Below are positions 9,001 to 57,586 of a DNA stretch of 64,000 nt, piece after piece. The first letter of the stretch is position 1. The number at the start of each line of letters is the position of its first letter. The stretch is from a virus (Duplodnaviria; Heunggongvirae; Uroviricota; Caudoviricetes): IMG/VR virus record IMGVR_UViG_3300021387_000076; one strand, 5' to 3'. The position numbers were made by a program, and so were the translations under genes. A model generated the notes under the pieces. The model saw only the letters and a list, made by a program, of their open reading frames with translations. It made no database searches and was not told the DNA's origin.

Positions 9001-12000
9001 GTTGGTTGCTGCAAATAATAAAACAATTGATCAGGGACAGTTCAATAATCTGTTCGAAGGTTTTATTAATCCTAATGGCAAAAAATCTGCTGATTACTAT
9101 GCCTCTGCTTTTAAATACTACAGAGATCAGATAGCTAATCAGGAAACTGTACTTGAAGGAAGTTTCAACGACTACATTGTTGATATGCTTACCGGAACCT
9201 TTGGCGAAACTTTCACAAAAGGTAGAACGGACAGCAAGCTTACAGCAGAGGATACATTCTTTGATATGTATCTTGAAATAGCGAAGAAACGCATGGATAA
9301 GTATTCAAATAAAACTGCCTATAGCAAAGCTATGAGTCTGCTTGACAGTTATGCGAATGCTCCAGAAACTTTACTTCAAAGTGATATTGAAGATCTGACA
9401 AGGCCTATTGCCAGAGCCAAAGAAGAATTCAATAATTATGATGCACGACAAAACACGAGTGCAATTGCTTCTGTTCTTGGATGGAGTCAGGATACGGTTA
9501 AAGAAAAAATGCAAACAGATAAAGGTCGCGCCGAAGTAGAAGAAGCAATTAAGAAAACAGAAGAGACTACAACGGAAGCCATAACTATGCTGATCGACAC
9601 GTTGAGAAGCAGCATAGCATCTGCTTTCAACGTATCTGGGGACAGTGTTGAAGAAGTTGACGGCAAGATAGCTGAAGTTGCCGGAGAAATAGGACAACTG
9701 TTTTCTCAGCTTGTTGAAAAATATGGTCACCTCGTCATTACTCCAGAAGCCGATCAGACATATTCAGAGTTGTATGATAATTTTATTAACAGCCGCAATA
9801 CAGGAAGTCAGCGCGATATCTTTGGTTTTGCAAAACGAATGAAAGAAAATGGTCAGACTTTCAGTAATGTTACTGCAACAGCAGGTACAAACGAAGATGC
9901 ATATATAAGAGCTCTTCTTGGCGACAAAGCTTACATGAATATGTTTGAAGCCAATCAGCGTAACATTTTATCTGACAGCGCATTTGATACTTATTTATCG
10001 AATCGGCAAAACGGTACTGACAATCAATACTCTGTGTATAGCAATATCCTTGATAACTTACTTGGTGGCGGAGTTGAAGGTGGTTTCCTTGGAAGTCTTG
10101 AAAATGGAACCATAAGTGCAGACACAATAACAAATACTCTTTCTGCACCTGATAATACGTGGATCAGAGACTATATTGAATCGCTCAATGGCGGCAAAGA
10201 AGCGCTTGAAGACATTAGCAAAGGCGGGGAAAATGCCAAGAATGGTATTGATCAGTTGGCTGCTGCAATGAGAAATGCAGGTGCCAGTGCTGCTAGTGAT
10301 TACAGAAACGATCTTACCGAAATGACGAACATTCTGAACAATCTTAAAAAAGGCGGGCAGGATGCTGGCAAAGCGATGGGTCAGCTTTCGAAAAAACTTT
10401 ACGATGCCTACGATAATGTGCTTGCTTCTAATAGAATCCGTGGAAAGTCTGGCAAGCAGGTTGACAAAACAACCAGAGGTATTGTCGGAGAATTTCTTGG
10501 TATAAGTGATGACAAGCAGATTCAGAAGATGACAAAAAAACAAATGGACCACGTTGCTGATCTTATGGAGTCATCTGGTAAAGATGCCATAGACAATGGT
10601 TTTGTTAATTCTTTTGAAGAAGAATTAAAGAATGCTCTTAATGCACTGCAGCCCGGAAGCGAACAGTACAAATTAGTTAATAGTATTCTACTCAAAGCAG
10701 TTGCTGATGGCGAAGTTGATACCTCTGAACTTGATGCCGTCATTGCCGCACTGCAGAACGATGTTCTAAGCTCAATGAATGCTGCTATTGGTCCGATTGG
10801 CACTCTCATGTTGAGCATTTTTGCAGCAGGAAATTCTATTACGGCTGCATTAACAGGTGGGGCACAGCTGGGTACTGCTCTTTTATCTGGTGCAAAAGCT
10901 AACGTAAATCTTAACACAGGCAACAAAGCAAAATACCAAAGCCACGGCGGTGGTGGAGGTGGCGGAGGCGGTAAATCCGAATCTGCTGCTGAGAAGCTTG
11001 TCAACCGTGTTAAGAAAGGCAGCGAGCTTTATAACCACCAGCTTAAGATGATCCAGTATCAGGAGACAAAACATCAGAACGCTGGAGAACTTACCATGTA
11101 TGGCAACGAACTCCAGAGAGAGATTGATCTTGAGAAGGCATATCAACCTGCACTTCAAGAAAATATCAAAGCTCTGAAATCTCAACTTAACAGTGTGTCT
11201 AAAGGTTCTGAAGACTGGTATAAACTTCGCGAAGCTTTATTCAGCGCCGAAGAACAATACGACGATATTACGAATACCATCGAAGAGAATGAAAGAAAGC
11301 TGAAAGAAAACCGTGAGGCTATTCGTCAGACCAGAACTGCTCTTGAAGATCTTCTCACTTCTCAAATAGAAGAAAGAATCAAGAAGCAGCGTGACATGCT
11401 TGCTGGCACTGTAGACATGCAGTCCATTATTCTTGATGCTATCAGGCAAAGATACCAGGATGAATGGGATCTTATAAAGAAAGATATCGAGAAGAAAAAA
11501 CAGGCGCTTGAGCAGGAGAAGTCTCTTATTGACGAGCGTCTCAATCTTCGTAAGAACGCTGCAGACGAAGCGAAGAAATATGAAGAACTTGCTGAACTCA
11601 AGTCTCAGCTTGCCCGTGTTTCCATGGACAGCACCCGTACAAAGGATGCTGCGGCTCTTCGTGAGCAGATTGCAAAGATTGAAGAAGAGATCGGCTGGGA
11701 TATTGCTGATCAACAGGCTGAATCTGAAAAGCAGCAGATTGATGACCAGATCAAAGGTTATGACGAGTTTGTTGCTCAGGGTGACGAGGATCTTTCCAAG
11801 TTCCTCGAGGACACAAACAACTTTGCTCAAGAGATTACTACAGTTCTCGGCATGAGCCATGATGAGCTCTTCGCGTGGCTCAAGAATAACGTGACAGACT
11901 TCAAGAATAGTCTCGACGAAGTCCAGCAACAGATGATAGACAGCTGGGAAGATACCTACAAACAGATGTTTGGTATCACGGATACTTATTGGGAACAGGT

Positions 12001-12994
12001 TAACGCAATTCTCAGTGATAAAGATACCTTCCTTAACTTCATGCGCGAAAGCGATGAATATGTCAATGCTTCTGAAACTGAGAAGCAGTCTCTTATTTAC
12101 GAATGGGAGAAACTGTATGACGACTACGTCAAAGCTCGTCTAAATGGGCCAGTAGGTTCTCATAGTGACGAAGGCTATGGTGACTGGTACGGTTCCGAAT
12201 ACACCGGCGCTGATGGCGGTGGCGGTGGAGGCGGAGGATCTGGTGGATCCAGCGGTGGCCCTGGTACTTCAACAAGCAATGAAGATGAATGGCTTTGGTA
12301 TGCTGTTGATCAGCGTGGCAAAGTTATATCTGCTGGATATGCGAAAAAAGAAGATGCTGAAGCAATAGCAAAAAGAGAACAAGGCGGAAGAGTAATGCGG
12401 CTGCATAAATCCAACGCATCGACAGAAGCTAAAGTTAATACTGCTGTATATTCTGTCACAGATCCAATCAAGTCTACAGTCAATTCTGTGGCAAATTCTG
12501 CTATTGGCTCAACAATTGGAAGTATCGCAAAAACAGTAGGCAACGCTACGTCGAATGCATTAAGTGCAATAACAAATTCAATTGGAAAACTTTTTAAACC
12601 TGCAAAAGCTGACACAGGTGCATATACTGGCAATCAGGAAGGTTTAATCTACGTTCATAAAAAAGAACGTATCCTGAATCCTCAGCAGACTGAATCATTC
12701 GAACGTTTGACTCGTGTTGCTGAATCTATGGACAGAACAAATGCTTTTGATGGTATTGTTTCCAAGATGAATGACTGGTCCAGCAATACTGTTGTTCCTA
12801 TCGACATGCCTTCGTTCAGTCCTTCTGACTTTAAGAACTCTACCACTACGACCATTGGTGATATCATCATTACTCTCAATGAAGCCAAGCTCGAGAACGA
12901 TGCTGATTACGAAGCGGTTGCTCAGAGAGTTGGCGAGAAGTTCGTCAAGGAACTTACCAAACAGGGACTTGGTGTTTCTGCTTTTGGCTTCTAA
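1..12994 (+). CDS. Tail tape-measure protein, 5'-truncated by the window edge (at least 4329 aa). It has a TP901-family TMP core domain at about nt 4000-4750, long coiled-coil Ala/Glu/Lys-rich regions and two poly-Gly linkers.
   Basis: Single uninterrupted ORF. The frame is open back to position 2. The stretch AIQLKAPIADVTAAATALYRQG...GTAMQTFMSRFSKIG...ISYAFGGTRQYSNL matches the conserved TP901-family phage tape-measure core. It lies immediately upstream of Dit-like and Tal-like genes. Confidence 0.8.
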   Translation, partial: QMFPQYSYGIRGNISDIELQDLRALRSKAIASVDRKIAERRAKEGLSETAAYFKGPNGENIAKYRSEMLGKYYIDDDPKHPSINVVDNIGDFGFTTRNLENALKEDALHNFYNDPNVYLVGRNQTMMQQMRETKRIAEDAMANSEQEDLQAIEAFDSQPVDNSAAQKANKEANKAETEAVKAEVEAANARKEAAEARKQAAEAQKATEQTAEQAVAKAEKATEQQARHALDYAEYTVTRTMPWMDTDTVDEHGNPAVGLENIYVTKKNGKTEKGNLPVSLAPYTPRGQKKRTMEEGRKEQASNEKYGSSSSGADALIGSSISHVMDQLGPTALTKTIYGEGLHGIEKLAYQGLKEYYTNHEEEMKQLGITFNDADMSAFDPSKTNFSYSGKDAKILDKLNALTPAKLARYFVDDIVHQDRDRNGVLSAKDDARTIISTEGKIYDPIMGNVLNESTMVSGPSGGEKEIGYTLKGIKNSKGEDVVTRFAPDYIVRDGKTGKIVIGDHKSSPHGADKGIIQGSVYAAWLDDLAEEYYKTTDENRKRELDPYKIFGQLNDKGEYESNIVGIETRDFFTGTTDRREYNQEIRRLESERIRKAQEKKYAEAQGNFGKYGLNDIPVVTTAGEEPPAGSNPPSSPNSNPPVNAQAAAADKRREGFFQEYQLLINRYSKLNESFGNFTSGMTGELYKDREGTYADNYFRRSRHSRDNVVSDTNLLKNSFIDLYDRAGWPDTNDLINTLEANKTAAINAYDVGTRAWAQNRSKRLLENAENFSLRKQDPFYKQREEIENQKNNVKEMESTLDNFILSRFEKSEISRDENTGAINGILQDGKIVAIRDAVLNGKENNDTVELMKTRLESLKTASDENIKLINEQIERDVDREIADMQEASDAVTKTHQTSGQQRENYWNKKRRKLSESIEDRIVARDALDKMLEDTETYKEDNPKRKQLERLRDQYNKSIDQESEYLNNGGFDKDSQDDLQALRTSRLNQLRHYFSGTRESPIAQMVSNGMLSLKDLDNNGDILNAGSQFYQGMLGMLDESISGQKARYTNFVDDLSRTGNMSVTERINRSYQSKRMQSLASIKQMQQEAIDLDKMLTTGKDLDGREMFDVNDTSETTQGIKNRIEKYRDFLKDISKQAQDALDKTLPDQESKEIARTLEDVKTQSEIQTDKYQYGANQIQRSEAARRRQLDMHSRGYRSAFGQELEWRRNQYDNAVSREESYSLRRKQLNAERTRLQRQLDDDDANEEKLSSEERSGIEGQLAAATNEYEALGEAIVKARQEQTEFGASGQAVAAALTVIGGAVSKVAKQFGTRIWHMAMQETMQFVKSYDAAMTEIQMVTLKTDTQISNIGKGLIDSAIQLKAPIADVTAAATALYRQGLGDEDVQTRLQDVIKFSTTAGVKAADAVKLITVSLNSGLVSSSQEAMDVISALGDSAATTAAEITKGLQKSVYAAKDVGVSYNELVSMLTAITAGTQLGGNIAGTAMQTFMSRFSKIGTNELVYDENGNQMSGSALASVLQSVGIKTYEGGERRRFTDVLSELAGQWDSLSDARKSQISYAFGGTRQYSNLNALLTAFGEVDENGQTAIEKYLGIAKGSEGMTDAKYQSYTESLAASINTLKNSFDGLVESLTNTNVLTGFIDFISNAITGITELNTALSGVPAILVAIGAALTVLTSSNPILLGIAAAIAGVAAVGNIAHNIATSSKVNSDPLHNLNSSKSSIEKDNAARVSQVKENLGIARQLNKKRLSGQELSQDESSRLVESLSKLQNLGVDSIKASTDINALAASAQATAKALDGVTTAATALSDRQVKELLNAFLTDVDNNKERFQEDKDKISLSDEERETARNAIDKAKNKQYGSALEFYEDIIPVLNAMDLSGLDRITVNRKTNTPSKFSPQELAGVLYTAYSNTQEDLEDLGIDDFNISEYSQLMDVIESVLSNGDSLNRLKNTFMFGESNRAGITELVKQSLAGTAHQDITDAIIESIIADANQAENFDFLNGDVRGYASLYAARNKKNVVTNRSKNGNLLGSAASALVLSGDLTGSFDSLYEWLGSRRGKAKNDVLIRALNRQLQLGAEGSFPMLESMLQDPDFAKALLRFGTLNEDGTYTFNEYDETDENNNGIPDVEETGKVNGVSDEDLDYLMRIIASKGKKYKLASYRSNADILSSAQNAITSLGQGTKWKDLTDDALQDVAAVLGEEYYSKLANGQTLDDALLNNLYSRYLNNVSSYSQTGYAKLGQNLLSSIGTSGYTLKGWQDENNLTQADMDSIFQLYDGLKEVASMTDAELEAGGYNPEEIKKGAEKTLNLITTLANIGESDWSDMSKNAITKFNGTYAEQLSEYSDLISQNDRFNEAKKAIERVKEGEWLETDLSTLQSLTGIKIDFKNVDTAIDDVESVYNTLVTNFSNGLNETLMNVVSEETISDIKIEKPTLNTSELVGYLGNSVEEWVKRAIEDLGIAMQNGEFVYDVENLNQVTATTVAGIMSGYNNNQTSKNINILSGIRNALKDEGNTSLDEELSGFSADDLMEWFKNNPVASELANRVGSEYSGFYSRLIDGMINPQENKGVAYNQDLLRHYIDRMNKGQSFDIVNDAVDKFIYDELTSAYGADFTNMFRNGYNETIANNLLTGVSSFRTRQQAVDNVRTIVSDIIGGRKDFASLSENSTDLNDLNAIIPENIRGGLFGEGSVYTAENRDAILERLYSQYLTGQGMNNYDIANYAKTMLDDYENIRTNGLQQWGIDNGLLDSEIDTILNAYQGLREFVTGPASNINDAITKRALTSQMLSNMVSESDYSDLTKAYISSLNGSESEKDALLAERQVEMETYDEVDEAIKRIESGNYSDTDLATVNKLSPYALTMDNVGSYLGLAKSSITRTRTNKQSALIEALNTLYPNANVTDETILNNLKALGIKIVDGKFVTDEAIQNPSISSLSSRSSAQYNKEAVDRNSILSQISTLVNQSFFKEDYEGSLFDLLPDNSQFRDFFKNQQANGLINELLVAANNKTIDQGQFNNLFEGFINPNGKKSADYYASAFKYYRDQIANQETVLEGSFNDYIVDMLTGTFGETFTKGRTDSKLTAEDTFFDMYLEIAKKRMDKYSNKTAYSKAMSLLDSYANAPETLLQSDIEDLTRPIARAKEEFNNYDARQNTSAIASVLGWSQDTVKEKMQTDKGRAEVEEAIKKTEETTTEAITMLIDTLRSSIASAFNVSGDSVEEVDGKIAEVAGEIGQLFSQLVEKYGHLVITPEADQTYSELYDNFINSRNTGSQRDIFGFAKRMKENGQTFSNVTATAGTNEDAYIRALLGDKAYMNMFEANQRNILSDSAFDTYLSNRQNGTDNQYSVYSNILDNLLGGGVEGGFLGSLENGTISADTITNTLSAPDNTWIRDYIESLNGGKEALEDISKGGENAKNGIDQLAAAMRNAGASAASDYRNDLTEMTNILNNLKKGGQDAGKAMGQLSKKLYDAYDNVLASNRIRGKSGKQVDKTTRGIVGEFLGISDDKQIQKMTKKQMDHVADLMESSGKDAIDNGFVNSFEEELKNALNALQPGSEQYKLVNSILLKAVADGEVDTSELDAVIAALQNDVLSSMNAAIGPIGTLMLSIFAAGNSITAALTGGAQLGTALLSGAKANVNLNTGNKAKYQSHGGGGGGGGGKSESAAEKLVNRVKKGSELYNHQLKMIQYQETKHQNAGELTMYGNELQREIDLEKAYQPALQENIKALKSQLNSVSKGSEDWYKLREALFSAEEQYDDITNTIEENERKLKENREAIRQTRTALEDLLTSQIEERIKKQRDMLAGTVDMQSIILDAIRQRYQDEWDLIKKDIEKKKQALEQEKSLIDERLNLRKNAADEAKKYEELAELKSQLARVSMDSTRTKDAAALREQIAKIEEEIGWDIADQQAESEKQQIDDQIKGYDEFVAQGDEDLSKFLEDTNNFAQEITTVLGMSHDELFAWLKNNVTDFKNSLDEVQQQMIDSWEDTYKQMFGITDTYWEQVNAILSDKDTFLNFMRESDEYVNASETEKQSLIYEWEKLYDDYVKARLNGPVGSHSDEGYGDWYGSEYTGADGGGGGGGGSGGSSGGPGTSTSNEDEWLWYAVDQRGKVISAGYAKKEDAEAIAKREQGGRVMRLHKSNASTEAKVNTAVYSVTDPIKSTVNSVANSAIGSTIGSIAKTVGNATSNALSAITNSIGKLFKPAKADTGAYTGNQEGLIYVHKKERILNPQQTESFERLTRVAESMDRTNAFDGIVSKMNDWSSNTVVPIDMPSFSPSDFKNSTTTTIGDIIITLNEAKLENDADYEAVAQRVGEKFVKELTKQGLGVSAFGF

Positions 12995-14136: not shown

Positions 14137-17100
14137 ATGGCTGACAACAGAGTATTACATTTAGACTTATATGATTACTCGGGCAATAAAATATGTCCGA
14201 TATACGATAACTATACACCGGTGCTCGGAGAAGCTGTTAACGTTTACATTCAGGATGAACGGAACGGATGGAGAGAACTGTACTTCGATATGCCAACTGT
14301 TATCCAGAGCGAAGAAGGTAACCTTGAGAACTTCAGGATAGACCTTCTGAAGGCTGAATACCTTATCGAGGCTACAGAAACAAAAGGCAAGGACTGGTTC
14401 TTTATTTCCGAACCAAAGATAGTACATAATGCCTTCAACAAATCCTTGTCAATTACTGCTCCTCATGTATCACAGTGGCTTAAATACAAGAACCTTGGAA
14501 TGGAATTCTCAGACAACGAAGGCAATAACATCGGCACAGCAGAAGAACTTCTTCGTACCATACTCGAAGGAACAGGCTGGAAAGTTGGCAATGTATATCC
14601 GTTTGCAGAAAAGGATGGCTCAACTAAATACAGATCATTGAAGGCTTCCGCAAAAACGGGAGCCTTCAAGCTTATCACTTCGATGTGTGAACTGTTCGAT
14701 GCCCGCCCTGTATTTCATGGAGATACAAGAGAAATAGACATCGTTCCTCTTAACCCATTCTCTGAAGTGGCGCCGGGTGAAGTTCCAGCATATGCCAAAG
14801 AGAATGGAGTTATTGAACTTAACTACGGTTCTTCTTTAAAGAATGTTACCCGTGTCATCAATACAGACAACATAGTTACAAAGCTTTATGCTTACGGTGC
14901 ATACGGCGACAAGACATATGGATATTGTGCAATTGATGAATGTGTACACACTGAGTATGTTTTTACTACGAATCAGAGACTTGAATCAGGACATGAGTAT
15001 TTCTTCGAGGTTAATGATACATCCGGTACTTTAACAAGTTTTTCATTCACAGTTACAGAAGATCTGGAAGCTGGAGAGACTCTTATTTACTCGTTGCTTG
15101 ATCCGTGCTCAATGAGCTACATCTGGAGAGAACCAAACGGAAAAGCTTACTTTGTCAAACAGGGCAAGCGAGGCGAGCAGTTGGACGCTTCGATTGAAAC
15201 CAAAGAAGAAGTTCCTAATTGGTTTGGTTTTCTGCTTGACTTCAACTACTATATTACCATTGGCTTGTTTGACGACGAGATGCTCCAGCAGGTGGCAAGG
15301 TATCAGCGTGAAGCCCCGGCTCTGTATGAAAGAATATCTCAGGCCTCTCTTGCAATGTCTGAGGCTGTTACCGAACTGAGCAAAACGGCAGGTGTTTTTC
15401 CTTACTGTAAGCTTGCAGTAAAAGAAAAGCTTGACGGTTTTGCTGACGGTTATTTGACTCTTAGGCTTGACTATGAGAATTATGACCAGGGTGTTATCTA
15501 TCGTACAGATTACGACAGCACAAAGGATACCTATTTTAAATGGGTCGTAACAGATGAAGTTGACCCAAAAGGTGACCCAATTAATACAGGCTGTTCGAGG
15601 CTTTACATTATGCATCCCGCTGATGCAAGTAAACCTATAACGTGGGATGTGTTGTGCCTCAAGAAGGTCTATGATGATCTCGTCAACCCAAAAGCTATTA
15701 CGCTGTGGGCAAACGAGAACGATATAAAGATAGACTTTGAAAAGGATCAATTCTTCCTGCTGCAGAGTCTCAGTACTGCAGGCTATCTCGGTTATCTTGA
15801 ATCAAGGGATGAAGCGGCAGTCGAGTCACTCGACGACGCTACGACAATAGCTACAAATACACACAAGGTTATTTTCATTGATGAAGATCCTCATTACGTT
15901 CAGACACCCGGAGGACAGACACCTTTCCCGGGTATAGATGTGCAGACATATGACTGGATGAAAGTAAATTCATATGGCTGGCTATGGAGGTATTATCCTG
16001 TAGAGCGTGACGGAGCTTTTACCGAATCTGACTTCTACTTCTGCAATAAAGCTTACGACACTGAAGATGGAAAAGTATCATGGAAGCGTGTGGCTTTCAC
16101 CGACAAGATGCCAACTGATGCCCGTGCCGATTACTGGTATAACTGGAGAACGAATACGCTGTCCAGAAGCAATGGAACTGTATGGAATTCACTTGACTCA
16201 TACACAGATGAAAACATTGCCAGTTACTTTGGCACTGTATATTACTTCGGAAAGATAAGAGACATGCTTTATCAGGGTGTAAAGAGAAAACAGATATACA
16301 CTCTTGGCGATGACTCTTCTCTGACTGAAAAAGTTATTCCTGCAGGCAACTATTATTTCGAGAATGGCTATGGCAGCTTCTGGGCTTTTACTCTCAATGA
16401 ACCTGTTGAAGGATCCAATTCTTCAATAACATATGACGTCTATAACAACTGGATTACAGTGAGACGCAACGGAGTGGACGAGTCCATCAAAGGAAAAACA
16501 TATCGTTTTGACGGAGTCAAGTATCACCCAAGTGATATCATCACTGTAAGGAATGCAACGCCTGGACTTATAGACATAACAAACGGAAACGTATATGACG
16601 AATACGACGCAAGCGTATACACGAACTGTAAATACAATGACGTATATCTTCCCGTACTGCCAGACACAACATATCAGTTTTCCAAGCTTGTCTATAATAC
16701 TTATATCCTTTATTACAACGACAAGAAACGGTGGATATCTTCCGGACCGGCATCATCCACCTACTTCACCACACCTGCAAACTGTTTTTATATCAGGCTC
16801 TTGGGTTACGGCTTGAGCGGCGCTGCCAACACTTCTTCTCTTATCGATGAGTTCGAAGAAGGATACAGCGGCGAAAGAACGACAATTTCTGTAACCCAGC
16901 CTTTTGGATCTGAACTTATAGGCACATGTGACAACACAATTATCTTGAGTGACATGACGTATCTCAAGCTGAACGTCACCTCAACTGACGGAGAAACAAT
17001 TGGTCTGCTTGCGTGCATGCAGAAGTTTGTCGATGACTCCAACTATATCTATACAGATCTCTATGCGAATCTGAAGTCTGCACAGGATGCCGTAAAAGAA

Positions 17101-19101
17101 CTTGAAAATGCGCTGACTGATAAATGCGGTGACATTTACAGGGAAGGTTACTGGCAGGATTCCAGCTACGTAGACGGCGACGAGAAGAAACTTTACGAAG
17201 ACGCCTGGGAGAACCTTGAAGAAATATCCAAGCCTGAGACGACATATAATATTTCTTTCCTTGACCTGTATACTTCGAATGACGAGAACAAAGATTTCGG
17301 AAATACAGAACAGTCTGCAGCCATATCTTGGCCTAACATAGACATCTCTTCTGCGGTTCATTTAATAGACCAAGAGCTTGACATTAACTGCTGGGCCTAT
17401 GTAGACAAAATAAAGAAGTGTTATGACAAGCCGTGGCTCACCACTCTTGCAATCAACACGAAGCTTTCCACAATTGGTCAGCATACCTTTACGGATGTTA
17501 TGACGCATATAGCCGATGTTGCAAGCGAGATGAAAGGGAAGGCTTCCAAGTATGATAACGCAGCAAACAAAGCAATTGCCGCGCTGAACATGAACCTGAC
17601 AGGAGCAAACGTCTCTATAACTGAACAGGCTCTGACTTCTGTCTACAACAAGATGGATGTTATAGACAACAAGCTTATCTCACATGAGTCAAGTATTACA
17701 CAGACGGCTGAAGAGATAACCACAGAAGTAGCGAGGTCTATTGAATCTGACAGACAGTTGACTACCAGAATCAAGCAGACAGCAGACAGTATTCGTACTG
17801 ATCTCTTTGGCAAGAATGGATCCGGTAACATCATCCAGAATGCAGATGAATTCTCTTCTACGTATCAGAATAACTATACTGCAGCAATCGAAACGAAGCA
17901 GCAGATAGCAAGGGCTCACACCATAAATGAAAACAGACCAGACGGTGTTAACTTTGCAAGCGAAGAAGAACGCACAGAACTTGTTAACCTGATCACAGCT
18001 CTGCAGAATAAAGGATATATCAACAGCACTTACAACCCTGAGACGCTTGTCAATGACAAGACGGGTATTACTTATGTTCTCAATCAGATACCTGAATTAA
18101 AAGAAGACAACTTAATGTCGAACCTGAAACAAACAATGTACGGCCTGTACCTCAGCATTTATGGCACTGACAGCAACGGTCATGTCATAACAAGTGCTGA
18201 CGAGTTCAGGTCTGTTTTTGCGTCTGCCGACGCACAGAAACAGACCGAGATGACACAGACCATGTATGGCATAACGAACATCGTTGAATCTAAAGACGGC
18301 AAGTCTTTGATCACTCAAGATGATCGTTCTATTATGGCACAGGTTCGCAGTGCCAATGCTGATCCCAATGGCGGCAACGCATTCAATACGAGCAGCATTA
18401 ATATCACTGATGACAACATCCATGTATCAAGCACTGGTTCTATCAATATCGATGCCGGTGGTAAGTTTACAGTAGACTCTGATAACTTTGACGTCGACGA
18501 GAACGGTATCATGACGACAAACGAAGCTGTTCTCACAAACGCTACGGTCGTCGGAAATATTTACAAGAACGGTTATCCGGTGCTTGCAATAGGTGATGAC
18601 ATTATCGTGTCGACTACAGAGCCTGCTGGCGTGGCTGGACGTATATGGATTAAACCTGGTACAGGTGAAGGCGGCGGTTCTTCAACGCCTGGATCTACAG
18701 GTACTGTGACATACACAGGATCCTACGCATTCAGTATCAGGTCTTATGAAAACCTGCATAACTTCTCTACTTCTCTTACAGGAAATGGCTTTGCTTCCAG
18801 TTCTACTAACTGTACATACAGAATACAGTTTAATTTCTTTATGCCTTCTTCTGAGGGAAAACAGAAGCCTGGTGGAGGCAAGATCAGAGTTGTGCTTGGC
18901 AATTATCTTGCCGCAGAAACTGGGCTTTATACAGGATCAGGTAACAAGAGTGTTGATATTACTTTCAGTGCAGAGACATGGCTTGGCAATTCAAATTCTC
19001 TTTCTTTTACCATTCAGGTTATCGGTGTGTCTGGATACAATGGCACATATTTGAACAATGCTTCTTCTTCGAGCATTACTGTTACATGTACAGCTAACTA
19101 A
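14137..19101 (+). CDS. Tail-associated lysin / prophage tail endopeptidase (Tal)-like protein with a long fiber/receptor-binding extension (1654 aa)
   Basis: RBS AAGGAAGTGA. N-terminal MADNRVLHLDLYDYSGNKICPIYDNY... resembles the siphovirus Tal/prophage-tail N-domain. Size and position after Dit fit Tal. The C-terminus is beta-rich and lectin-like. Confidence 0.55.
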   Translation: MADNRVLHLDLYDYSGNKICPIYDNYTPVLGEAVNVYIQDERNGWRELYFDMPTVIQSEEGNLENFRIDLLKAEYLIEATETKGKDWFFISEPKIVHNAFNKSLSITAPHVSQWLKYKNLGMEFSDNEGNNIGTAEELLRTILEGTGWKVGNVYPFAEKDGSTKYRSLKASAKTGAFKLITSMCELFDARPVFHGDTREIDIVPLNPFSEVAPGEVPAYAKENGVIELNYGSSLKNVTRVINTDNIVTKLYAYGAYGDKTYGYCAIDECVHTEYVFTTNQRLESGHEYFFEVNDTSGTLTSFSFTVTEDLEAGETLIYSLLDPCSMSYIWREPNGKAYFVKQGKRGEQLDASIETKEEVPNWFGFLLDFNYYITIGLFDDEMLQQVARYQREAPALYERISQASLAMSEAVTELSKTAGVFPYCKLAVKEKLDGFADGYLTLRLDYENYDQGVIYRTDYDSTKDTYFKWVVTDEVDPKGDPINTGCSRLYIMHPADASKPITWDVLCLKKVYDDLVNPKAITLWANENDIKIDFEKDQFFLLQSLSTAGYLGYLESRDEAAVESLDDATTIATNTHKVIFIDEDPHYVQTPGGQTPFPGIDVQTYDWMKVNSYGWLWRYYPVERDGAFTESDFYFCNKAYDTEDGKVSWKRVAFTDKMPTDARADYWYNWRTNTLSRSNGTVWNSLDSYTDENIASYFGTVYYFGKIRDMLYQGVKRKQIYTLGDDSSLTEKVIPAGNYYFENGYGSFWAFTLNEPVEGSNSSITYDVYNNWITVRRNGVDESIKGKTYRFDGVKYHPSDIITVRNATPGLIDITNGNVYDEYDASVYTNCKYNDVYLPVLPDTTYQFSKLVYNTYILYYNDKKRWISSGPASSTYFTTPANCFYIRLLGYGLSGAANTSSLIDEFEEGYSGERTTISVTQPFGSELIGTCDNTIILSDMTYLKLNVTSTDGETIGLLACMQKFVDDSNYIYTDLYANLKSAQDAVKELENALTDKCGDIYREGYWQDSSYVDGDEKKLYEDAWENLEEISKPETTYNISFLDLYTSNDENKDFGNTEQSAAISWPNIDISSAVHLIDQELDINCWAYVDKIKKCYDKPWLTTLAINTKLSTIGQHTFTDVMTHIADVASEMKGKASKYDNAANKAIAALNMNLTGANVSITEQALTSVYNKMDVIDNKLISHESSITQTAEEITTEVARSIESDRQLTTRIKQTADSIRTDLFGKNGSGNIIQNADEFSSTYQNNYTAAIETKQQIARAHTINENRPDGVNFASEEERTELVNLITALQNKGYINSTYNPETLVNDKTGITYVLNQIPELKEDNLMSNLKQTMYGLYLSIYGTDSNGHVITSADEFRSVFASADAQKQTEMTQTMYGITNIVESKDGKSLITQDDRSIMAQVRSANADPNGGNAFNTSSINITDDNIHVSSTGSINIDAGGKFTVDSDNFDVDENGIMTTNEAVLTNATVVGNIYKNGYPVLAIGDDIIVSTTEPAGVAGRIWIKPGTGEGGGSSTPGSTGTVTYTGSYAFSIRSYENLHNFSTSLTGNGFASSSTNCTYRIQFNFFMPSSEGKQKPGGGKIRVVLGNYLAAETGLYTGSGNKSVDITFSAETWLGNSNSLSFTIQVIGVSGYNGTYLNNASSSSITVTCTAN

Positions 19102-23855: not shown

Positions 23856-24068
23856 TTATGCTGTGTGATATCCAACCCATCCGCAGTCACATTCATACTG
23901 GTACTGACACGGATAAGAAGTAAGAATAATATCCATGCGCTTCCATATTCTTTTGCCGCATATCGGACATTCAATATCTGTTTCAATCCGAGAAACAGTA
24001 TTATTAATAGGAAGCTCGCGCTTAATGTAGTCATTCCACTTCATTACTTTCACCTCTGTGGTACACAA
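23856..24068 (-). CDS. Small zinc-finger protein
   Basis: CPICG...CDCGW motifs. Confidence 0.3.
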   Translation of the reverse strand: MCTTEVKVMKWNDYIKRELPINNTVSRIETDIECPICGKRIWKRMDIILTSYPCQYQYECDCGWVGYHTA

Positions 24069-24795
24069 GATCTTCTATATATTCAGGCTGATCATGGAAC
24101 GATGGGATCTGATAATCAATGAACCATTTGCGGTCTTCACCTTTTTTGACACATATACCAAGTCTGTTTTCAGCCAATACATTGTCCCAGTCTATTCCTT
24201 TAGCCAGAAGCATTTCTTTGATATTGTTGCCTTTCTTTGCATACAATTCCTTTTGTGTGAAATGCATTCTTGCTAAAGTCTGAATTGAATTCTTTTCACA
24301 GTCTCTCTGCCGCCAGAGAAAATAGTTAAGTACTTCTTCGCGAGGCAGAGTAAATGCACGGGAGTCGAATATCGCCGGCCTGAAAGTTTCAAATGCTTTT
24401 GCGAGTCCGTTGCTTGCAAACCCACATTCAACTGCGATCTTCATCGCGTGATTGAAGTGCAGTGTAGCCATCGCAGCGGAGACACTTGTAATTTTCTGGA
24501 GGTTTTTATCAAACCATGGTTGTGTCTCATAGGTATCGTCGTCCATAACAAGCAGGCTTATTTCATCCGACTGAGTGTATGCAAGCTTTGCTCCCATGAT
24601 ATCTCTGCAGAGCTGCCTTGCCGTGTCAGCCATACAACTGCTGAGCGACATATCAAATGGACGGTCAAAGTCTTTTGTAAAAGTATGGAAGTGACATCCG
24701 TCAATGCGGATGATCATCGGAGTTCTTTTGGTAAGGTATTTTCTTTCGATGTTTTCGTAACCTTTCATCCTGTCACCAAGAGAGGTTTTATCCAT
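24031..24795 (-). CDS. Thg1-like protein (tRNA-His guanylyltransferase-like 3'-5' nucleotidyltransferase)
   Basis: Strong SD AAGGAG 9 nt before the ATG at 24795. Motifs IIRIDGCHFHTFTK, AYTQSDEISLL and FDSRAFTLP line up with Thg1 family motifs (RIDGxxFHxFS, ESDEYSF, FDSR) recalled from yeast Thg1. Confidence 0.65.
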   Translation of the reverse strand: MDKTSLGDRMKGYENIERKYLTKRTPMIIRIDGCHFHTFTKDFDRPFDMSLSSCMADTARQLCRDIMGAKLAYTQSDEISLLVMDDDTYETQPWFDKNLQKITSVSAAMATLHFNHAMKIAVECGFASNGLAKAFETFRPAIFDSRAFTLPREEVLNYFLWRQRDCEKNSIQTLARMHFTQKELYAKKGNNIKEMLLAKGIDWDNVLAENRLGICVKKGEDRKWFIDYQIPSFHDQPEYIEDLVYHRGESNEVE

Positions 24796-25274: not shown

Positions 25275-25448
25275 CTAAAACCAAATAAGGTTTTGCACTC
25301 TCCTGCTAGCTGGAACATTCGGATGCCATCCACGACTTGTTCTTACGACCTCGGAGCATGTAAGAAGCGCAGGCTTGTCCGATGAAGTTATCTGTTGGCT
25401 TCAGATATACCACTCGGACTCCCTTGGTACGCTGTACGGTCTGATACG

Positions 25449-25519
25449 CTGAGATGGCAGGAATTGAACCTGCAATAGGGGAGTCAAAGTCCCCTGTTAT
25501 TCCACTTAACTACACCTCA
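25449..25519 (-). tRNA. tRNA-Gln (anticodon UUG), 71 nt, CCA not encoded
   Basis: Hand-folded cloverleaf. Acceptor TGAGGTG/CATCTCA with U1:A72 and one G-U. D-arm GTTA-AGTGGAA-TAAC. Anticodon arm GGGGA-CTTTGAC-TCCCC with U33 and A37. T-arm GCAGG-TTCAATT-CCTGC. Confidence 0.8.
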
Positions 25520-27197: not shown

Positions 27198-27383
27198 AAT
27201 ATGTGGGTAAGGATTTGCACCTTACATAATGTCCTCTGTCTTTTGACACCGTAGGAGCGCGAAACCTACGAATGGGGACATCGAAGTTTGTCTCTACGTC
27301 TACTGTTACTGAGCGTCTCGCCACAGTTTTACCATCCTTTCGCCGTAGCCATTGGGATGTCTATTCCGCCACCACAAAATTGG
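27198..27383 (-). ncRNA. tRNA-like unit 1, degenerate (D-arm motif damaged, long insert). Possibly a pseudogene.
   Basis: T-arm hairpin GTAAGG-ATTTGCA-CCTTAC at 27207-27225. D-like motif at 27359-27373 lacks a pairing stem. Confidence 0.25.
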
Positions 27384-27480: not shown

Positions 27481-27612
27481 AATATGTGGGTAGGGATCTG
27501 CACCCTACATGAACGCTTGCAATTAATGCTATCTATCTGTGGAATCAATTGCTGTGCAATATCTTCGTGCGTTCGTATTGTTAACTGTGTCTATCTATTC
27601 CACCACCACATG
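27481..27612 (-). ncRNA. tRNA-like unit 2
   Basis: Acceptor CATGTGG/CCACATA (6 of 7 bp, position 1 mismatched). D-arm GTG-GAATAGATAGA-CAC. T-arm GTAGGG-TGCAGAT-CCCTAC. Insert between D-arm and T-arm of about 80 nt. Confidence 0.4.
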
Positions 27613-27613
27613 A

Positions 27614-27730
27614 ATATGCGGGTCAGGATTTGCACCTGACATAGGCAGGATTGCTGTTTTTGCATGCTCGGATGGATGCGTCTGCCGCCCTACCGATACT
27701 GGCTGTGTTTACCTATTCCACTACCGCATA
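27614..27730 (-). ncRNA. tRNA-like unit 3
   Basis: Perfect 7 bp acceptor TATGCGG/CCGCATA. D-arm GTG-GAATAGGTAAA-CAC. T-arm GTCAGG-TGCAAAT-CCTGAC. 64 nt between D-arm and T-arm. Confidence 0.45.
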
Positions 27731-27897
27731 AAAAAACACATGGCCCAACCGAATCGAACGGCAGGATTAAGCCCTGTAGTGCTGTCCATAAGGATGACTT
27801 TGCAGAGAACCAGGCACCATGTAATTGTGATCTAAGGCGTCACAAGACCTCACTCTTGAACCTCAGGAACTCCGAGTGAATCAGTTTCATACGATGT

Positions 27898-28009
27898 GAT
27901 CTCTGGCGAGGATTTGCACCTCACATGAATACCGTTGCCGCTTTTCCTCATATACGTTTCGGAAATCGTATTCTTACAGTGTAGCGTCTACCTATTTCGC
28001 CACAGAGAT
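27898..28009 (-). ncRNA. tRNA-like unit 4
   Basis: Perfect acceptor ATCTCTG/CAGAGAT. D-arm GCG-AAATAGGTAGA-CGC. T-arm GTGAGG-TGCAAAT-CCTCGC with one G-U. 60 nt insert. Confidence 0.45.
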
Positions 28010-28011
28010 CA

Positions 28012-28130
28012 TTATACGGGTCAGGATTTGCACCTGACATGTCGGTTTTGCCGAACACCGTAGCTCCGACAACCGTTAGCCATGTATTGGCATCTTAATT
28101 TTTTGCGTCTACCTATTCCGCCACCGTATA
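28012..28130 (-). ncRNA. tRNA-like unit 5
   Basis: Perfect acceptor TATACGG/CCGTATA. D-arm GCG-GAATAGGTAGA-CGC, which differs by 1 nt from E. coli tRNA-Leu. T-arm GTCAGG-TGCAAAT-CCTGAC. 65 nt insert. Only 2 nt from unit 4. Confidence 0.45.
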
Positions 28131-28290
28131 TTTAATTGCCGTCTAACTAGCGCCTAAAAGATGTCAACCTTCTCGGAGCTTACAACCACGACAATCGCCT
28201 GAAGCCCGGGTCGATCTGTTTATGCTCGGTCTTGGGTGTTGACAGCACCCGCCGCCTAGCCGTCTCCCAAGTGTGCTGTGCGGTTAATGA

Positions 28291-28392
28291 AGATGCGGGT
28301 CGGGATTTGCACCCGACATAACGCATACAGGAATATGCGTTCAGCGATATGGCCAGTATCTTACCTGTGTCTACCTATTCCACCACCACATG
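28291..28392 (-). ncRNA. tRNA-like unit 6
   Basis: Acceptor CATGTGG/CCGCATC (6 of 7 bp with a G-U, position 1 mismatched). D-arm GTG/CAC. T-arm GTCGGG-TGCAAAT-CCCGAC. 49 nt insert that includes an 8 bp hairpin. Confidence 0.4.
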
Positions 28393-28501
28393 TACGGGTG
28401 AGGATTTGCACCTCACATAAGTACGTTAATCTCCGTATGCCAGCGGCTCTTCCCGTACTCTTTTGCTGGCTTCCAGCGTCTACCTATTCCGCCACCGTAT
28501 C
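28390..28501 (-). ncRNA. tRNA-like unit 7, overlapping unit 6 by 3 nt
   Basis: Acceptor GATACGG/CCGTACA (5 of 7 bp, positions 1-2 mismatched). D-arm GCG-GAATAGGTAGA-CGC. T-arm GTGAGG-TGCAAAT-CCTCAC. Confidence 0.4.
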
Positions 28502-28785
28502 TGACAGACCAAGCCTTCTCCCAACAGTCTGCCGTGAGCCACGCCTTCCGTTATTTAGCCACGGACCAGGGCTTTAACAAGGTGGCTCGTCCCCAATTAA
28601 ACTACTGAGGTATAGTCCATCGTTCATTAAAATTATAAGCAGAGGTCATTCGGCATCACCTTCTTGCTTTGCTATAGCGGCAAGGTCTTTCTCTATCTTT
28701 TCCAATGTGGAATAAATATTAGAAAGAGAAACACCAAGGCTAAAATTTATCAGACCAAGCAGGATGGCTATAATGTTAAGTTCCG

Positions 28786-36501: not shown

Positions 36502-37583
36502 TTAAACAACATTTGCTGGAGCGTAGAAACGTTTTTTCTGTTCAGCTTGTCTGTCTTCAGACCACTTGGATACACGGGTGAGATAACCAATGACTCTTGT
36601 TGCATAGTCAAGGTTGTCTGATCCGCATTTAGGACATTTCTGCAGCTTGTGTTTGCTAATATGCCCGCAGCTGTTGCAAATAGTATTCGGAATGTTAAAT
36701 GTAAAGTAGTTGCAGCCAGTCTTGATTGCATACTTAAGCAGCTGCTTGTACTGTGTTTTGCTCAGATGCTCTTCGAGGTTGCAATGAAGAGCGGATCCTC
36801 CGTCAAGATACTGAGTAAACTCTTTGCCGTGCAGCTGGAATTTATCTACAGGATTTGTCGTCTCGTCTTCTACAATATAGAAGTAGGAATTATAACATGG
36901 ACGAGGTACAAAGTACCCATCTTCTTTGTCCCATCTGGCATTCTTAACTCCCAGATTTTCCGCAGGCACAAATTCCGTATTAAACATTTCTTTTTCTGAT
37001 TTGTGAAGCTTGTTCATGAGATAGATCGGCTTAAGCACAGCGTTAATGTAACTGCAATATTCGTCGTTATTTCCAATTTTGATACTTAAATATTCGGCAC
37101 CTTCGACTGCGCCGTTAATACCGACAGTAAGATATTCCTTTTCAGGACTGATGAAGCCGGCATCATAGATAGGTATCATGTGATTGCGAGTCATATCAAG
37201 AAGGATCTCATTATATGCATGGAGGTACATATGAATAAGTCTTGTCTGATCCTGTACGGCTGCGCTTATCTTTTTGAGCTTGTCTTCTAATGAACATTCT
37301 TCCGCATCACGACAGGTATTCTGCACGAGACGGTTCACGTTCATTGTAATTACACATTTGCTTCCGGTAGCAATTCCACCAGCGCCAAGTGTATAACTGA
37401 ACTGGTTTTCCGTAATACCATTGCGGAGCCGGCAACAGCTTGCAAGCGAATCAACGCTGTCACTCGTGTAAGTGAAGAAACTGTGACCTTCTGCATACAT
37501 CTCTGCTGCAAAGTCAGCCCATTCCTGGTCGCAGAAATCGTTGCCATCGTTTAATAAAGATAACGTTTCACCTTTATACCCTC
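36502..37583 (-). CDS. nrdD: Anaerobic ribonucleoside-triphosphate reductase, C-terminal exon (glycyl-radical domain)
   Basis: GGSALHCNLEE, CNSCGH...CPKCGS zinc ribbon and RVIGYLTRV glycyl-radical motif align with T4 NrdD. The frame is open upstream of the first Met (LLNDGNDF...) back to a TAA near 37583, with no start or SD there. Confidence 0.7.
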
Positions 37584-38635
37584 GGTTTTCCGATATTTAT
37601 TAGGGGAGTAGACCATCTCTTCATCCAATTGTTTCTGGATGCAAGGCACTTCGCTACATGAATTTCACATGATAGCTACGTCTTTCGACTGGTCGTTACA
37701 CCTTTTTAGACGCATCGTCTAAACTTGGCACGGTATTATCATGAATGACTTGTATTATTTCATTCAGTTTTAATTCTATGTTGTCAGTATGTTTTATTTC
37801 GTACAACTTAATATCATTGGCAATGCAATATTGTTTTTTTAAAAGATCAGTGTCTTCTCTTTCTCTTTTACCAAACCACGAATCACCTATTGCATAATGT
37901 TGTTCACCTTGATATTCTAATAAACCAACTAGTTTTCCATCAATAAATAAAGCAAAGTCAAAACGCAACGGAACATTGTTCTTTGAAACAAGATCTGCAA
38001 AAGAATATTGTCTTTTATAAGCAATGTTGTTTTCTCTCAACAATGAGGCGATAATGCTTTCATATTTGCTTACAATGCAACCACAACTTCTATTGTTTCC
38101 TGAAATTAAATCACCTGTAGTTACAAAACAAACTTCTCCGCAATCGCACAAACATTTCCATGTCTGTCTTTTCTTGTTGTGACTGCCAACCTCTATGACA
38201 GGTCCACGCTCAAGCACGAATAATCGATCGAATCTTGTACCTGTTAGGTCTGGGTTATTTGATTTATTATGTTGTACGAAACCTTGATACTTTAAACATC
38301 CACAAGATGGCATTTTATTTTCTTTATTCACGTGCCATCTAGCCATAAATAATTTCTTCTGAGACATTCTTACAGTCTTACTACATGCTGAACAATAACA
38401 ATCATACTCTCTTATTTCGTTATCATTCTCATCAAAGTAATCATATTCTTTTCCAACATGAATATAACCGAATGTTTCTCCAGTGAGTGACACTTTCTTC
38501 TTGGGTCTTCTTATCATATTATTCACCCACTCCAAGTTCAATTTTAGATTTTCACCGTTAGCCGATGTTACGCATCGACACCGTATATTTATACGTTCAC
38601 CTTGTTTTCTAAACATATTACTATGTTAAGCCGCT
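37565..38635 (-). mobile_element. Intervening sequence splitting nrdD. Most likely a self-splicing (group I-like) intron that carries a homing endonuclease gene. Boundaries are approximate.
   Basis: The two nrdD halves are in different frames, separated by about 1.07 kb. The second half has no start signal. Phage nrdD genes (T4) are known intron hosts. Confidence 0.5.
37696..38616 (-). CDS. Intron-encoded homing endonuclease-like protein (Cys-rich N-terminus, Vsr/PD-(D/E)xK-like C-terminus)
   Basis: 306 aa. Many CxC/CxxC clusters. C-terminal FDFALFIDGKLVGLLEYQGEQHY resembles Vsr-like/EDxHD-type nuclease cores. Located entirely inside the nrdD interruption. Confidence 0.45.
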   Translation of the reverse strand: MFRKQGERINIRCRCVTSANGENLKLNLEWVNNMIRRPKKKVSLTGETFGYIHVGKEYDYFDENDNEIREYDCYCSACSKTVRMSQKKLFMARWHVNKENKMPSCGCLKYQGFVQHNKSNNPDLTGTRFDRLFVLERGPVIEVGSHNKKRQTWKCLCDCGEVCFVTTGDLISGNNRSCGCIVSKYESIIASLLRENNIAYKRQYSFADLVSKNNVPLRFDFALFIDGKLVGLLEYQGEQHYAIGDSWFGKREREDTDLLKKQYCIANDIKLYEIKHTDNIELKLNEIIQVIHDNTVPSLDDASKKV

Positions 38636-39462: not shown

Positions 39463-39676
39463 GATCTTCACCGCTTTCGATAGAATTAATGTATCCGATA
39501 GCGTTCTGAAGATTCATAAGCGAGCCGTCAACGCTGAGTACTGGAACATGCGAAATACCAAGGTTTTTCATCTTATTCATATCCATGCATACTTCGTAGT
39601 CTATTTTTGCACTGTCAAGTCTTCTCTTAAGCATCTTGCACATCGGACAGGTTTCTGTTGAGTACAAAACTATCAT
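39446..39676 (-). CDS. nrdH: NrdH-like glutaredoxin
   Basis: YSTETCPMCKMLK thioredoxin-fold CxxC. 76 aa. SD AAGGA. Immediately upstream of nrdD. Confidence 0.5.
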   Translation of the reverse strand: MIVLYSTETCPMCKMLKRRLDSAKIDYEVCMDMNKMKNLGISHVPVLSVDGSLMNLQNAIGYINSIESGEDHGTCK

Positions 39677-57570: not shown

Positions 57571-57586
57571 TTGCAATTGCCCCTTT

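Follow-up and report, generated by a model that had tools for sequence, protein, structure and literature searches.

A phage-encoded Thg1-like protein beside tRNA and tRNA-like genes as a candidate for templated repair of RNA 5' ends

Since the biochemistry of 2010–2011, the Thg1-like proteins (TLPs) of the bacterial type have been known only for the repair of 5'-truncated tRNAs in vitro. The question of their role in the living cell is raised by a gene at positions 24031–24795 of a 64,000-nt stretch of phage DNA (IMG/VR record IMGVR_UViG_3300021387_000076; the whole stretch is called the window below), which lies on the same strand as a phage small-RNA module made up of seven tRNA-Leu-derived units and a tRNA-Gln gene. 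An earlier note on this DNA had read the product as a Thg1-like 3'-5' nucleotidyltransferase that might mature the neighbouring units or counter host nucleases. We consider it probable, chiefly on grounds of homology, that the protein performs a generic fill-in of the recessed 5' ends of tRNA-shaped RNAs during infection, a reaction that would depend on ATP or GTP, proceed in the 3'-5' direction and be templated by Watson–Crick pairing. The gene and the motifs by which its product is recognised are as follows.

24795..24031, minus strand: coding sequence of the TLP, stop codon included, 254 amino acids; defined from the open reading frame (ORF), the N-termini of homologues and a Shine–Dalgarno sequence
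24810-24805, minus strand: Shine–Dalgarno sequence AAGGAG, 9 nt 5' of ATG 24795, read directly from the sequence
24708-24679, minus strand: motif RIDGCHFHTF, residues 30–39; R30 and D32 correspond to R27 and D29 of human Thg1, D29 being a metal-binding carboxylate; invariant in the clade alignment
24573-24550, minus strand: motif QSDEISLL, residues 75–82; S76-D77-E78 correspond to S75-D76-E77 of human Thg1, the second carboxylate pair; invariant in the clade alignment
24369-24352, minus strand: motif FDSRAF, residues 143–148; R146 corresponds to R133 of yeast Thg1, which acts in nucleotidyl transfer

The full ORF runs on the minus strand from 24822 to 24031 and would encode 263 residues. The nearest homologues are 252–255 residues long, and because their N-termini match the second methionine of this frame and the AAGGAG box stands before ATG 24795 with a 9-nt spacer, we place the start of the coding sequence at 24795. 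This choice gives exactly the limits that had been proposed for the gene in the earlier note, to which the strand is now added.

The identification as a Thg1-like 3'-5' nucleotidyltransferase is borne out, with the refinement that the protein is of the TLP class, by comparisons with Pfam, PHROG and the PDB and by the predicted fold. The Pfam Thg1 domain (PF04446), a search that the earlier note had recommended, is matched at 108.3 bits, far above the cut-off of 29.2 bits, with E = 3.4e-31 and with profile positions 2–130 of 130 covered. The phage family PHROG 4717, named 'tRNA-His guanylyltransferase', is matched with E = 8.7e-81 over 243 of 250 profile positions. Among relatives of known structure the TLP of Bacillus thuringiensis (BtTLP; PDB 4KGK) stands out with E = 1e-58, residues 5–246 aligning to its residues 3–239, followed at a great distance by the archaeal MaTLP (2e-11), Candida Thg1 (7e-11) and human Thg1 (4e-7). 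An AlphaFold model built on 19 homologues is confident, with a pLDDT (predicted local distance difference test) of 86.5 and a pTM (predicted template modelling score) of 0.86. When this model was compared with the PDB using Foldseek, the 32 best matches were all Thg1 or TLP structures, headed by 4KGM, again BtTLP, with template modelling (TM) scores of 0.80/0.89 and 44% identity; the model thus has the polymerase-like palm fold of the solved Thg1 and TLP structures. The companion profile Thg1C (PF14413), also suggested as a check, gave no Pfam match at E ≤ 0.01; the C-terminal half of the protein nevertheless aligns with BtTLP as far as residue 246, and the model superposes on 4KGM.

All three of the motifs quoted in the earlier note are present, and the residues expected to carry the chemistry are intact. 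Across an alignment of 19 sequences of the clade, R30, D32, S76, D77, E78, K101 and R146 are invariant. K101 aligns with the conserved lysine of activation and transfer, which in yeast Thg1 is K96 of the set R27, K44, K96 and R133; the roles of these residues in yeast and human Thg1, and of the activation and transfer residues of BtTLP, have been described (PMC6471195). In eukaryotic Thg1 the site that follows the FDSRAF region is occupied by the HINNLYN motif. Here this motif is absent: the segment WRQRDCEKNSIQ aligns with WRQ(V/A)DCHINNLYN of the Candida and human enzymes, and residues 161–170 of the phage protein, WRQRDCEKNS, stand in this region. The replacement of HINNLYN by CEKNSIQ, like that by ASKNSIS in BtTLP, marks the protein as a TLP and not as a tRNA-His-specific Thg1 (PMC6471195). 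Judged by its family, modelled fold and catalytic residues, the gene encodes an intact bacterial-type TLP; its catalytic activity and its substrates in vivo we infer.

BtTLP is accordingly the closest model for the phage enzyme (4KGK and 4KGM). The two are homologous over their full length, share their catalytic residues and have the same KNS-type site in place of HINNLYN, and the phage enzyme would be expected to carry out the Watson–Crick templated repair of 5'-truncated tRNAs known from BtTLP. The phage protein differs in being virus-encoded, in having Arg45 where BtTLP has Lys43, and in an insertion of 13 residues at about residues 122–134, in a helical region; its gene, moreover, sits in a module of tRNA and tRNA-like RNA genes. 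The resemblance to eukaryotic Thg1 is more distant: the fold and the two-metal catalytic core are the same, but identity in the structural alignment is 20–22%, the HINNLYN motif with its anticodon contact H154 is missing and the window has no tRNA-His gene.

These last differences bear on one alternative, namely that the enzyme adds G-1, or a templated N-1, to a phage tRNA-His encoded elsewhere in the genome. The database name of the family invites this reading, and one TLP-linked tRNA-His gene (L157:19876-19949; loci are cited by L numbers) encodes G-1 opposite A73 instead of the bacterial C73, a G-1 that bacterial RNase P might not keep. The anticodon-reading HINNLYN motif is absent, however, TLPs from bacteria and archaea favour 5'-truncated tRNAs over full-length tRNA-His (PMC6471195), no tRNA-His gene was found in the 64-kb window, and the other TLP-linked tRNA-His genes (L143 and L167) encode G-1 opposite C73. 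With G-1:C73 encoded in two of three such genes, we reject G-1 addition as the main role and regard it as very unlikely.

The mechanism that we favour, repair of recessed ends, is established for BtTLP and MaTLP (PMC6471195) and is carried over here by homology. The TLP would hold an RNA of tRNA shape by the acceptor stem and the T arm, leaving the anticodon unread, and would activate the recessed 5'-monophosphate end with ATP or GTP. Nucleoside triphosphates would then be added singly, each by Watson–Crick pairing with the 3' acceptor strand where it protrudes, until the 5' strand has caught up and the stem is flush. Candidate substrates would be the tRNAs of phage or host and the tRNA-like units that are produced or employed during infection. 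Both BtTLP and MaTLP prefer 5'-truncated tRNAs and add nucleotides in a templated manner (PMC6471195), and repair of 5'-truncated tRNAs of the BtTLP type is reported in a further source (PMC3061083).

The earlier note had considered a phage-borne system of tRNA 5'-end repair or editing unusual. For a phage TLP this view does not survive comparison with the databases. A tblastn search finds TLP homologues in 162 of 50,697 GenBank phage records, almost all of them genomes of more than 100 kb; the phages include those of Bacillus, Prevotella (Lak), Caulobacter, Mycobacterium, Erwinia, Vibrio and others, and the genes are mostly annotated as tRNA-His guanylyltransferase. At least 590 IMG/VR stretches encode confirmed relatives. 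If two metagenomic copies of the phage itself are set aside, the closest TLPs among the matches listed are 56–63% identical, and the viral contigs that carry them measure about 41 to 186 kb. A family in PHROG exists, and the literature has known of such genes since 2013, when gp143 of Bacillus phage Bc431v3 was flagged as unusual (PMC3601020); such a gene is also on record for phage BM10 (PMC6292376), and Thg1 is placed among RNA-repair functions in a survey of jumbo phages (PMC7824862). The phage protein belongs with these PHROG 4717 proteins, being 43–46% identical to those of Bacillus phages, whose function has been assumed to be the modification of phage or host tRNAs (PMC3601020, PMC6292376, PMC7824862). 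The gene on its own is thus an ordinary member of an already annotated phage family.

The choice of substrate can also be approached through the company that these genes keep. In the window this begins with a single feature.

25519..25448, minus strand: canonical tRNA-Gln(UUG), found by ARAGORN and scored at 64.4 bits by the Rfam tRNA model, 653 nt 5' of the TLP start

The distance of about 650 bp given in the earlier note is confirmed, and the strand is the same. This is the sole tRNA gene that ARAGORN or Rfam detects in the window. Among 96 TLP loci (viral, genomic and assembly sequences), a tRNA gene lies within 10 kb of the TLP gene in 36, within 2 kb in 18 and within 500 nt in eight; four or more tRNAs occur within 10 kb in 13 of the 96, and the tRNAs nearly always share the strand of the TLP gene. 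On several gut or rumen contigs of Clostridia type no more than about 120 nt separate the TLP gene from its nearest tRNA gene (L154, L161, L167 and L182), and in L156 no more than about 670 nt. TLP genes are often embedded in phage tRNA arrays. The association of TLP and tRNA genes, for which the survey had no matched random control, is descriptive but consistent.

Two side observations were made in these arrays. On a contig of Ruminococcus sp. YE282, ARAGORN reports a tmRNA (L167:882-1281) within an array of 14 tRNAs that ends 51 nt upstream of the TLP gene. The 3' CCA is encoded in 124 of 174 tRNAs of TLP loci (L137–L216) and in 39 of 130 tRNAs of loci that have only the tRNA-like units described below (L014–L133), a difference that may merely reflect different host clades.

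Several observations weigh against generic repair of tRNA 5' ends. The association with tRNA genes is far from universal: among the matches listed, the five closest IMG/VR relatives (L284–L288, 56–61% identity) have neither a tRNA nor a tRNA-like unit within 10 kb, three further loci (L011–L013) have neither within the available sequence, and phages Bc431v3 and FNU2 (a Fusobacterium phage) lack a tRNA within 5 kb of the TLP gene, unlike the window and many gut and rumen contigs, in which the gene stands within or beside a tRNA array. Canonical tRNAs near TLP genes show no excess of defects in the 5' acceptor strand, pair 1 being affected in 2 of 174 as against 3 of 130. Scans of the window revealed no nuclease from whose action recessed 5' ends would arise, and no defence nuclease cutting the 5' acceptor strand, nor any functional study of a phage TLP, was found in the literature. 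Finally, Arg45 (24661-24663) stands at the position of the ATP-activation lysine (yeast K44, BtTLP K43), within a consensus FxRPFD that holds across the clade, and K43 of BtTLP is used specifically for ATP-dependent activation (PMC6471195). Arginine in this place may shift the choice between ATP and GTP in activation of the 5' end.

The many TLP loci that have no nearby tRNA could also be read as a sign that the protein has a role apart from tRNA, for instance in extending the 5' end of some other RNA or in a nucleotidyl transfer of an unrelated kind, or that the gene is a passenger with no selected function; TLPs do accept external oligonucleotide templates in vitro (PMC6471195). We give this reading very little credence, the least of those considered here: all of the catalytic residues are kept throughout a large clade of phages, the family has been retained widely and TLP genes recur inside tRNA arrays.

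A different purpose for the same chemistry would be counter-defence, in which host or phage tRNAs whose 5' acceptor strand had been nibbled or cleaved by a host nuclease or toxin would be restored. TLPs are common in large phages that also carry sets of tRNAs, phage Thg1 has been grouped with RNA-repair genes (PMC7824862), and many tRNA-targeting defence systems are now known. The defence nucleases that we found, however, act on the anticodon arm, the 3' tail or the CCA end, and none is described as leaving a recessed 5' acceptor end: one paper reports cleavage in the anticodon arm, and for other systems cleavage of the tRNA tail and pyrophosphorylation of the 3'-CCA end are reported. Nor are partner repair genes evident, for no RNA ligase, polynucleotide kinase-phosphatase or CCA-adding enzyme was found when 34 distinct ORFs among the larger ones of the 64-kb window were scanned against PHROG and Pfam, and the genes that neighbour the TLP gene are not conserved across TLP loci.

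A precedent for such a role lies in phage T4, in which Pnkp and Rnl1 repair tRNA cut by the anticodon nuclease PrrC, healing the ends and ligating the breaks in the anticodon loop. The likeness is that a phage enzyme is proposed to restore damaged tRNA (related discussion in PMC7824862), but here the reaction would be a templated 5' extension, and the scanned ORFs contain neither ligase nor kinase. The suggestion in the earlier note that the enzyme counters anticodon nucleases is therefore a poor fit, TLPs extending recessed 5' ends and not resealing anticodon loops. Counter-defence at the 5' acceptor strand itself we judge to be distinctly unlikely.

We return to repair of recessed ends as the favoured account and to the question of whether its substrates are the tRNA-like units nearby. 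The array of these units lies, as the earlier note had said, 2.4 kb from the TLP start, measured between the nearest ends; it comprises seven units on the minus strand, from 28502 to 27199. Scores come from the covariance model R1, which is based on 69 aligned members of the unit family.

28390..28502, minus strand: unit U1, 79.5 bits; acceptor pairs 1 and 2 mismatched; 3' end overlaps U2; inferred candidate substrate
28291..28393, minus strand: unit U2, 62 bits with filters off; pair 1 is C.C; first 3 nt shared with the U1 3' end and discriminator
28012..28131, minus strand: unit U3, 86.8 bits; perfect 7-bp acceptor stem
27898..28010, minus strand: unit U4, 79.6 bits; perfect acceptor stem; 2 nt past the U3 discriminator
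27614..27731, minus strand: unit U5, 71.9 bits; perfect acceptor stem
27482..27613, minus strand: unit U6, 69.6 bits; mismatch C1.A72, kept in L010 and L220; 1 nt past the U5 discriminator
27199..27379, minus strand: unit U7, 51 bits; pair 2 mismatched; 57-nt insertion in the D-loop

Each unit consists, in order, of the 5' strand of a 7-bp acceptor stem, the dinucleotide UG, a D arm of tRNA-Leu type (GCGG-AAUAGGUAGA-CGC), a single-stranded linker of about 10 nt, one long variable hairpin domain (49–133 nt), the dinucleotide AU, a 6-bp T stem with the loop UGCAAAU, and the 3' acceptor strand. The acceptor and T stems would stack as 13 bp (7+6), there is no anticodon, and CCA is not encoded. In the alignment of 69 members 96.7% of positions are paired, 13 of 16 pairs have changed on both sides and none of 500 shuffles reaches the observed score, so that covariation of the acceptor, D and T helices is strong; in keeping these arms the units would be compatible with a TLP as substrates. 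R1 also picks up genuine tRNA-Leu genes, at 20–37 bits, which shows the family to be derived from tRNA-Leu.

A pattern derived from two conserved boxes of the units matched more than 120 IMG/VR contigs. Phages of Leuconostoc, Listeria, Enterococcus and Lactobacillus in GenBank also have units, which their records leave unannotated; a fragment of Bacillus phage SPP1 matches only the 5' box, which is common to true tRNA-Leu genes. Rfam 15 matched only true tRNAs in the array and at the units of other phages and holds no family for the units, ARAGORN does not call them tRNAs at their loci, and no description of them was found in a search of the literature for the unit sequences or for tRNA-like RNAs in these phages. 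The family thus appears to be undescribed. Its members stand among tRNA genes with spacers of 0–4 nt and mostly have U or A at position -1, and they are probably processed as tRNAs are.

Some features of the array are recorded here in their own right. One unit per phage is usual, as against seven in this window. Six of the seven form three tight dimers, U1U2 (28291-28502), U3U4 (27898-28131) and U5U6 (27482-27731), with anything from a 3-nt overlap to a 2-nt gap inside each dimer and gaps of about 160 nt between dimers. This layout recalls the dimeric tRNA precursors known from phage T4. In U7 (27338-27379 and 27199-27328) and in a unit of an unrelated phage (L181:10853-11069), insertions of 57 and 82 nt, respectively, are found at the same D-loop site, between GGAAUAG and UAGACG, and may represent an expansion segment or something like an intron.

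The earlier note had raised the possibility that the TLP matures this array; in a dedicated form, the enzyme would serve its 5'-editing or maturation. The mismatched units U1, U2, U6 and U7 would lose their first 1–3 nt, or U1 and U2 would do so through processing of their overlap, and the TLP would rebuild the 5' end on the 3' strand. The 3-nt overlap between two units on which the proposal partly rested is real: the 3' acceptor strand of U1 (28397-28391) and the 5' strand of U2 (28392-28386) have 2 nt in common, or 3 nt when the U1 discriminator is counted, and one transcript therefore cannot give both RNAs complete. Fill-in of unit U2 would restore its nucleotides U3 and A2 and exchange C1 for G1, creating G1:C72; G:C is the commonest 1:72 pair of the family. 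The mismatches in the 5' acceptor strand are also real, although they affect four units (U1 at pairs 1 and 2, U2 at pair 1, U6 at pair 1 and U7 at pair 2) and not three as had been stated. Over the lineage they occur in five of nine distinct units, namely these four and unit a of L220, always in pairs 1–3 and never in pairs 4–7, and the C1.A72 mismatch of U6 has been conserved in three diverged copies. TLPs, for their part, do not depend on the anticodon; what they recognise is the acceptor arm and the T arm, the latter through phosphate contacts (PMC6471195). Outside the lineage of the window, L010 and L220, units occur on the TLP strand at distances from 19 nt to about 8 kb in L048, L072/L353/L337, L152, L153, L156, L181, L343, L344 and L313, the spacing being 424 nt in L048 and 19 nt in L181.

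This arrangement resembles that of mitochondrial tRNA 5'-editing in Dictyostelium, where it is performed by DdiTLP3, and in Acanthamoeba. There too TLPs occur alongside tRNA-shaped genes that have mismatches in acceptor pairs 1–3 only (PMC6471195), and the genes overlap or are tightly packed. The comparison is imperfect in that the candidate substrates here are tRNA-like RNAs with no anticodon, known from their genes alone, and not decoding tRNAs, and in that the association of mismatches with a TLP is confined to the lineage of this phage.

That confinement tells against a dedicated editing enzyme. In raw counts, mismatches in pairs 1–3 affect 10 of 21 units near a TLP gene and 17 of 116 others (p = 0.0015). 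With orthologues merged the figures become 7 of 20 and 16 of 114 (p = 0.047), and with this lineage removed 2 of 13 TLP-near units remain (p = 1.0). The excess comes entirely from the phage's own lineage, and we discard mismatch enrichment as a TLP-linked signal; mismatched units are also found in loci where no TLP was found. The 1:72 pair is the weakest of the family, unpaired in 12 of 69 members, yet it covaries across the family, which indicates that the encoded nucleotide 1 is normally kept.

The distributions of the two genes point the same way. A TLP gene was present in 2 of 120 unit loci, and a unit in only about 5–6% of TLP loci; a TLP is apparently missing from most phages that carry units, and the majority of TLP loci have no unit close by. 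Units, including members mismatched at 1:72, occur on contigs of about 36–62 kb and in small phages of 28–40 kb. One of them is Leuconostoc phage Ln-9, which has 28.5 kb and 48 annotated features; Leuconostoc does not figure in the list of genera with TLP hits. Those taxa for which GenBank shows many units (Enterococcus, Lactobacillus, Listeria and Leuconostoc) have little in common with the taxa in which TLPs abound.

A close relative of the window is instructive in this respect. L220 (1194-2146, corresponding to window positions 28596-27199) encodes a TLP that is 98% identical, and the flanking sequences are 93–99% identical, but the overlapping pair U1 and U2 is absent, a different unit replaces U3, and U4 retains its acceptor stem while having a different variable domain. 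The array behaves like a hot spot of cassette exchange, and the TLP is kept while the array turns over.

Dedicated editing would also call for removal of the mismatched 5' nucleotides. No nuclease gene for this step is linked to the TLP gene, whose neighbours are not conserved, although a host enzyme such as RNase P is a possible agent. With an association that fails outside the lineage and co-occurrence that is sparse, editing of the array is a possibility for this lineage and not a rule for the family. As a dedicated function of the TLP we hold it to be unlikely, though worth keeping in mind. The more specific form, in which processing by RNase P or of a neighbouring unit would leave the 5' ends of those anticodon-less, tRNA-Leu-derived units that have a mismatched 1:72 pair or overlap a neighbour recessed by 1–3 nt and the TLP would finish their maturation in this lineage, we regard as more doubtful still.

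In the immediate surroundings of the gene there is one further small frame.

23856..24044, minus strand: small Cys-rich ORF of 62 amino acids from ATG 24044, containing the Cys motifs CPICGKR and CDCGW; 14 nt at its start are shared with the end of the TLP gene

This Cys-rich ORF, 3' of the TLP gene, is kept only in the close relative L010. An ORF of 180 amino acids downstream of the TLP gene matches no family in PHROG and Pfam scans. On either side the TLP gene has small genes to which no function is assigned, and their conservation ends with the same phage lineage: when seven neighbouring ORFs were compared by tblastn with the loci gathered, only L010 was matched, one small ORF excepted. No terminator-like site lies on the minus strand between the tRNA-like array and the TLP gene, and given this, co-transcription of the two is possible. 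The numbers of promoters and terminators found by scanning equal those expected by chance, and the scan therefore defines no transcription unit.

That the TLP is phage-encoded, as the earlier note assumed, is clear from the other genes of the window, which include those for tail proteins, a tyrosine integrase, DNA polymerase, a split NrdD with NrdG, dUTPase, thymidylate synthase and a RuvC-like resolvase. No near-identical DNA was found among GenBank phages. The phage is large and bears an integrase; judging from the sources of the closest related contigs, it most likely infects a gut or rumen Firmicute. The nrdD gene (minus strand, 36502-39471) is divided into an N-terminal part (38626-39471) and a C-terminal part (36502-37500), with an ORF for an HNH or homing endonuclease (37696-38616) between them, which suggests an intron or a similar mobile insertion; Rfam reported no group I intron there at the gathering score. 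Three ORFs are very large (5-12994, 4329 amino acids; 14137-19101, 1654 amino acids; 50554-57576, 2340 amino acids). The second of these matches a minor tail protein PHROG, and a protein of more than 3200 amino acids with phage fibre repeats is found in relatives.

Phage TLPs are very common and often lie inside tRNA arrays, and infection is thus a setting in which substrates of bacterial-type TLPs might be found. The phage described here provides a concrete test case, its TLP gene standing beside tRNA-like genes that overlap or have mismatches at their 5' ends. If the TLP does finish the maturation of these units, the system would be a counterpart in bacterial viruses of mitochondrial tRNA 5'-editing, or of the addition of G-1 to tRNA-His, and the units would be the first physiological substrate for a bacterial-type TLP.

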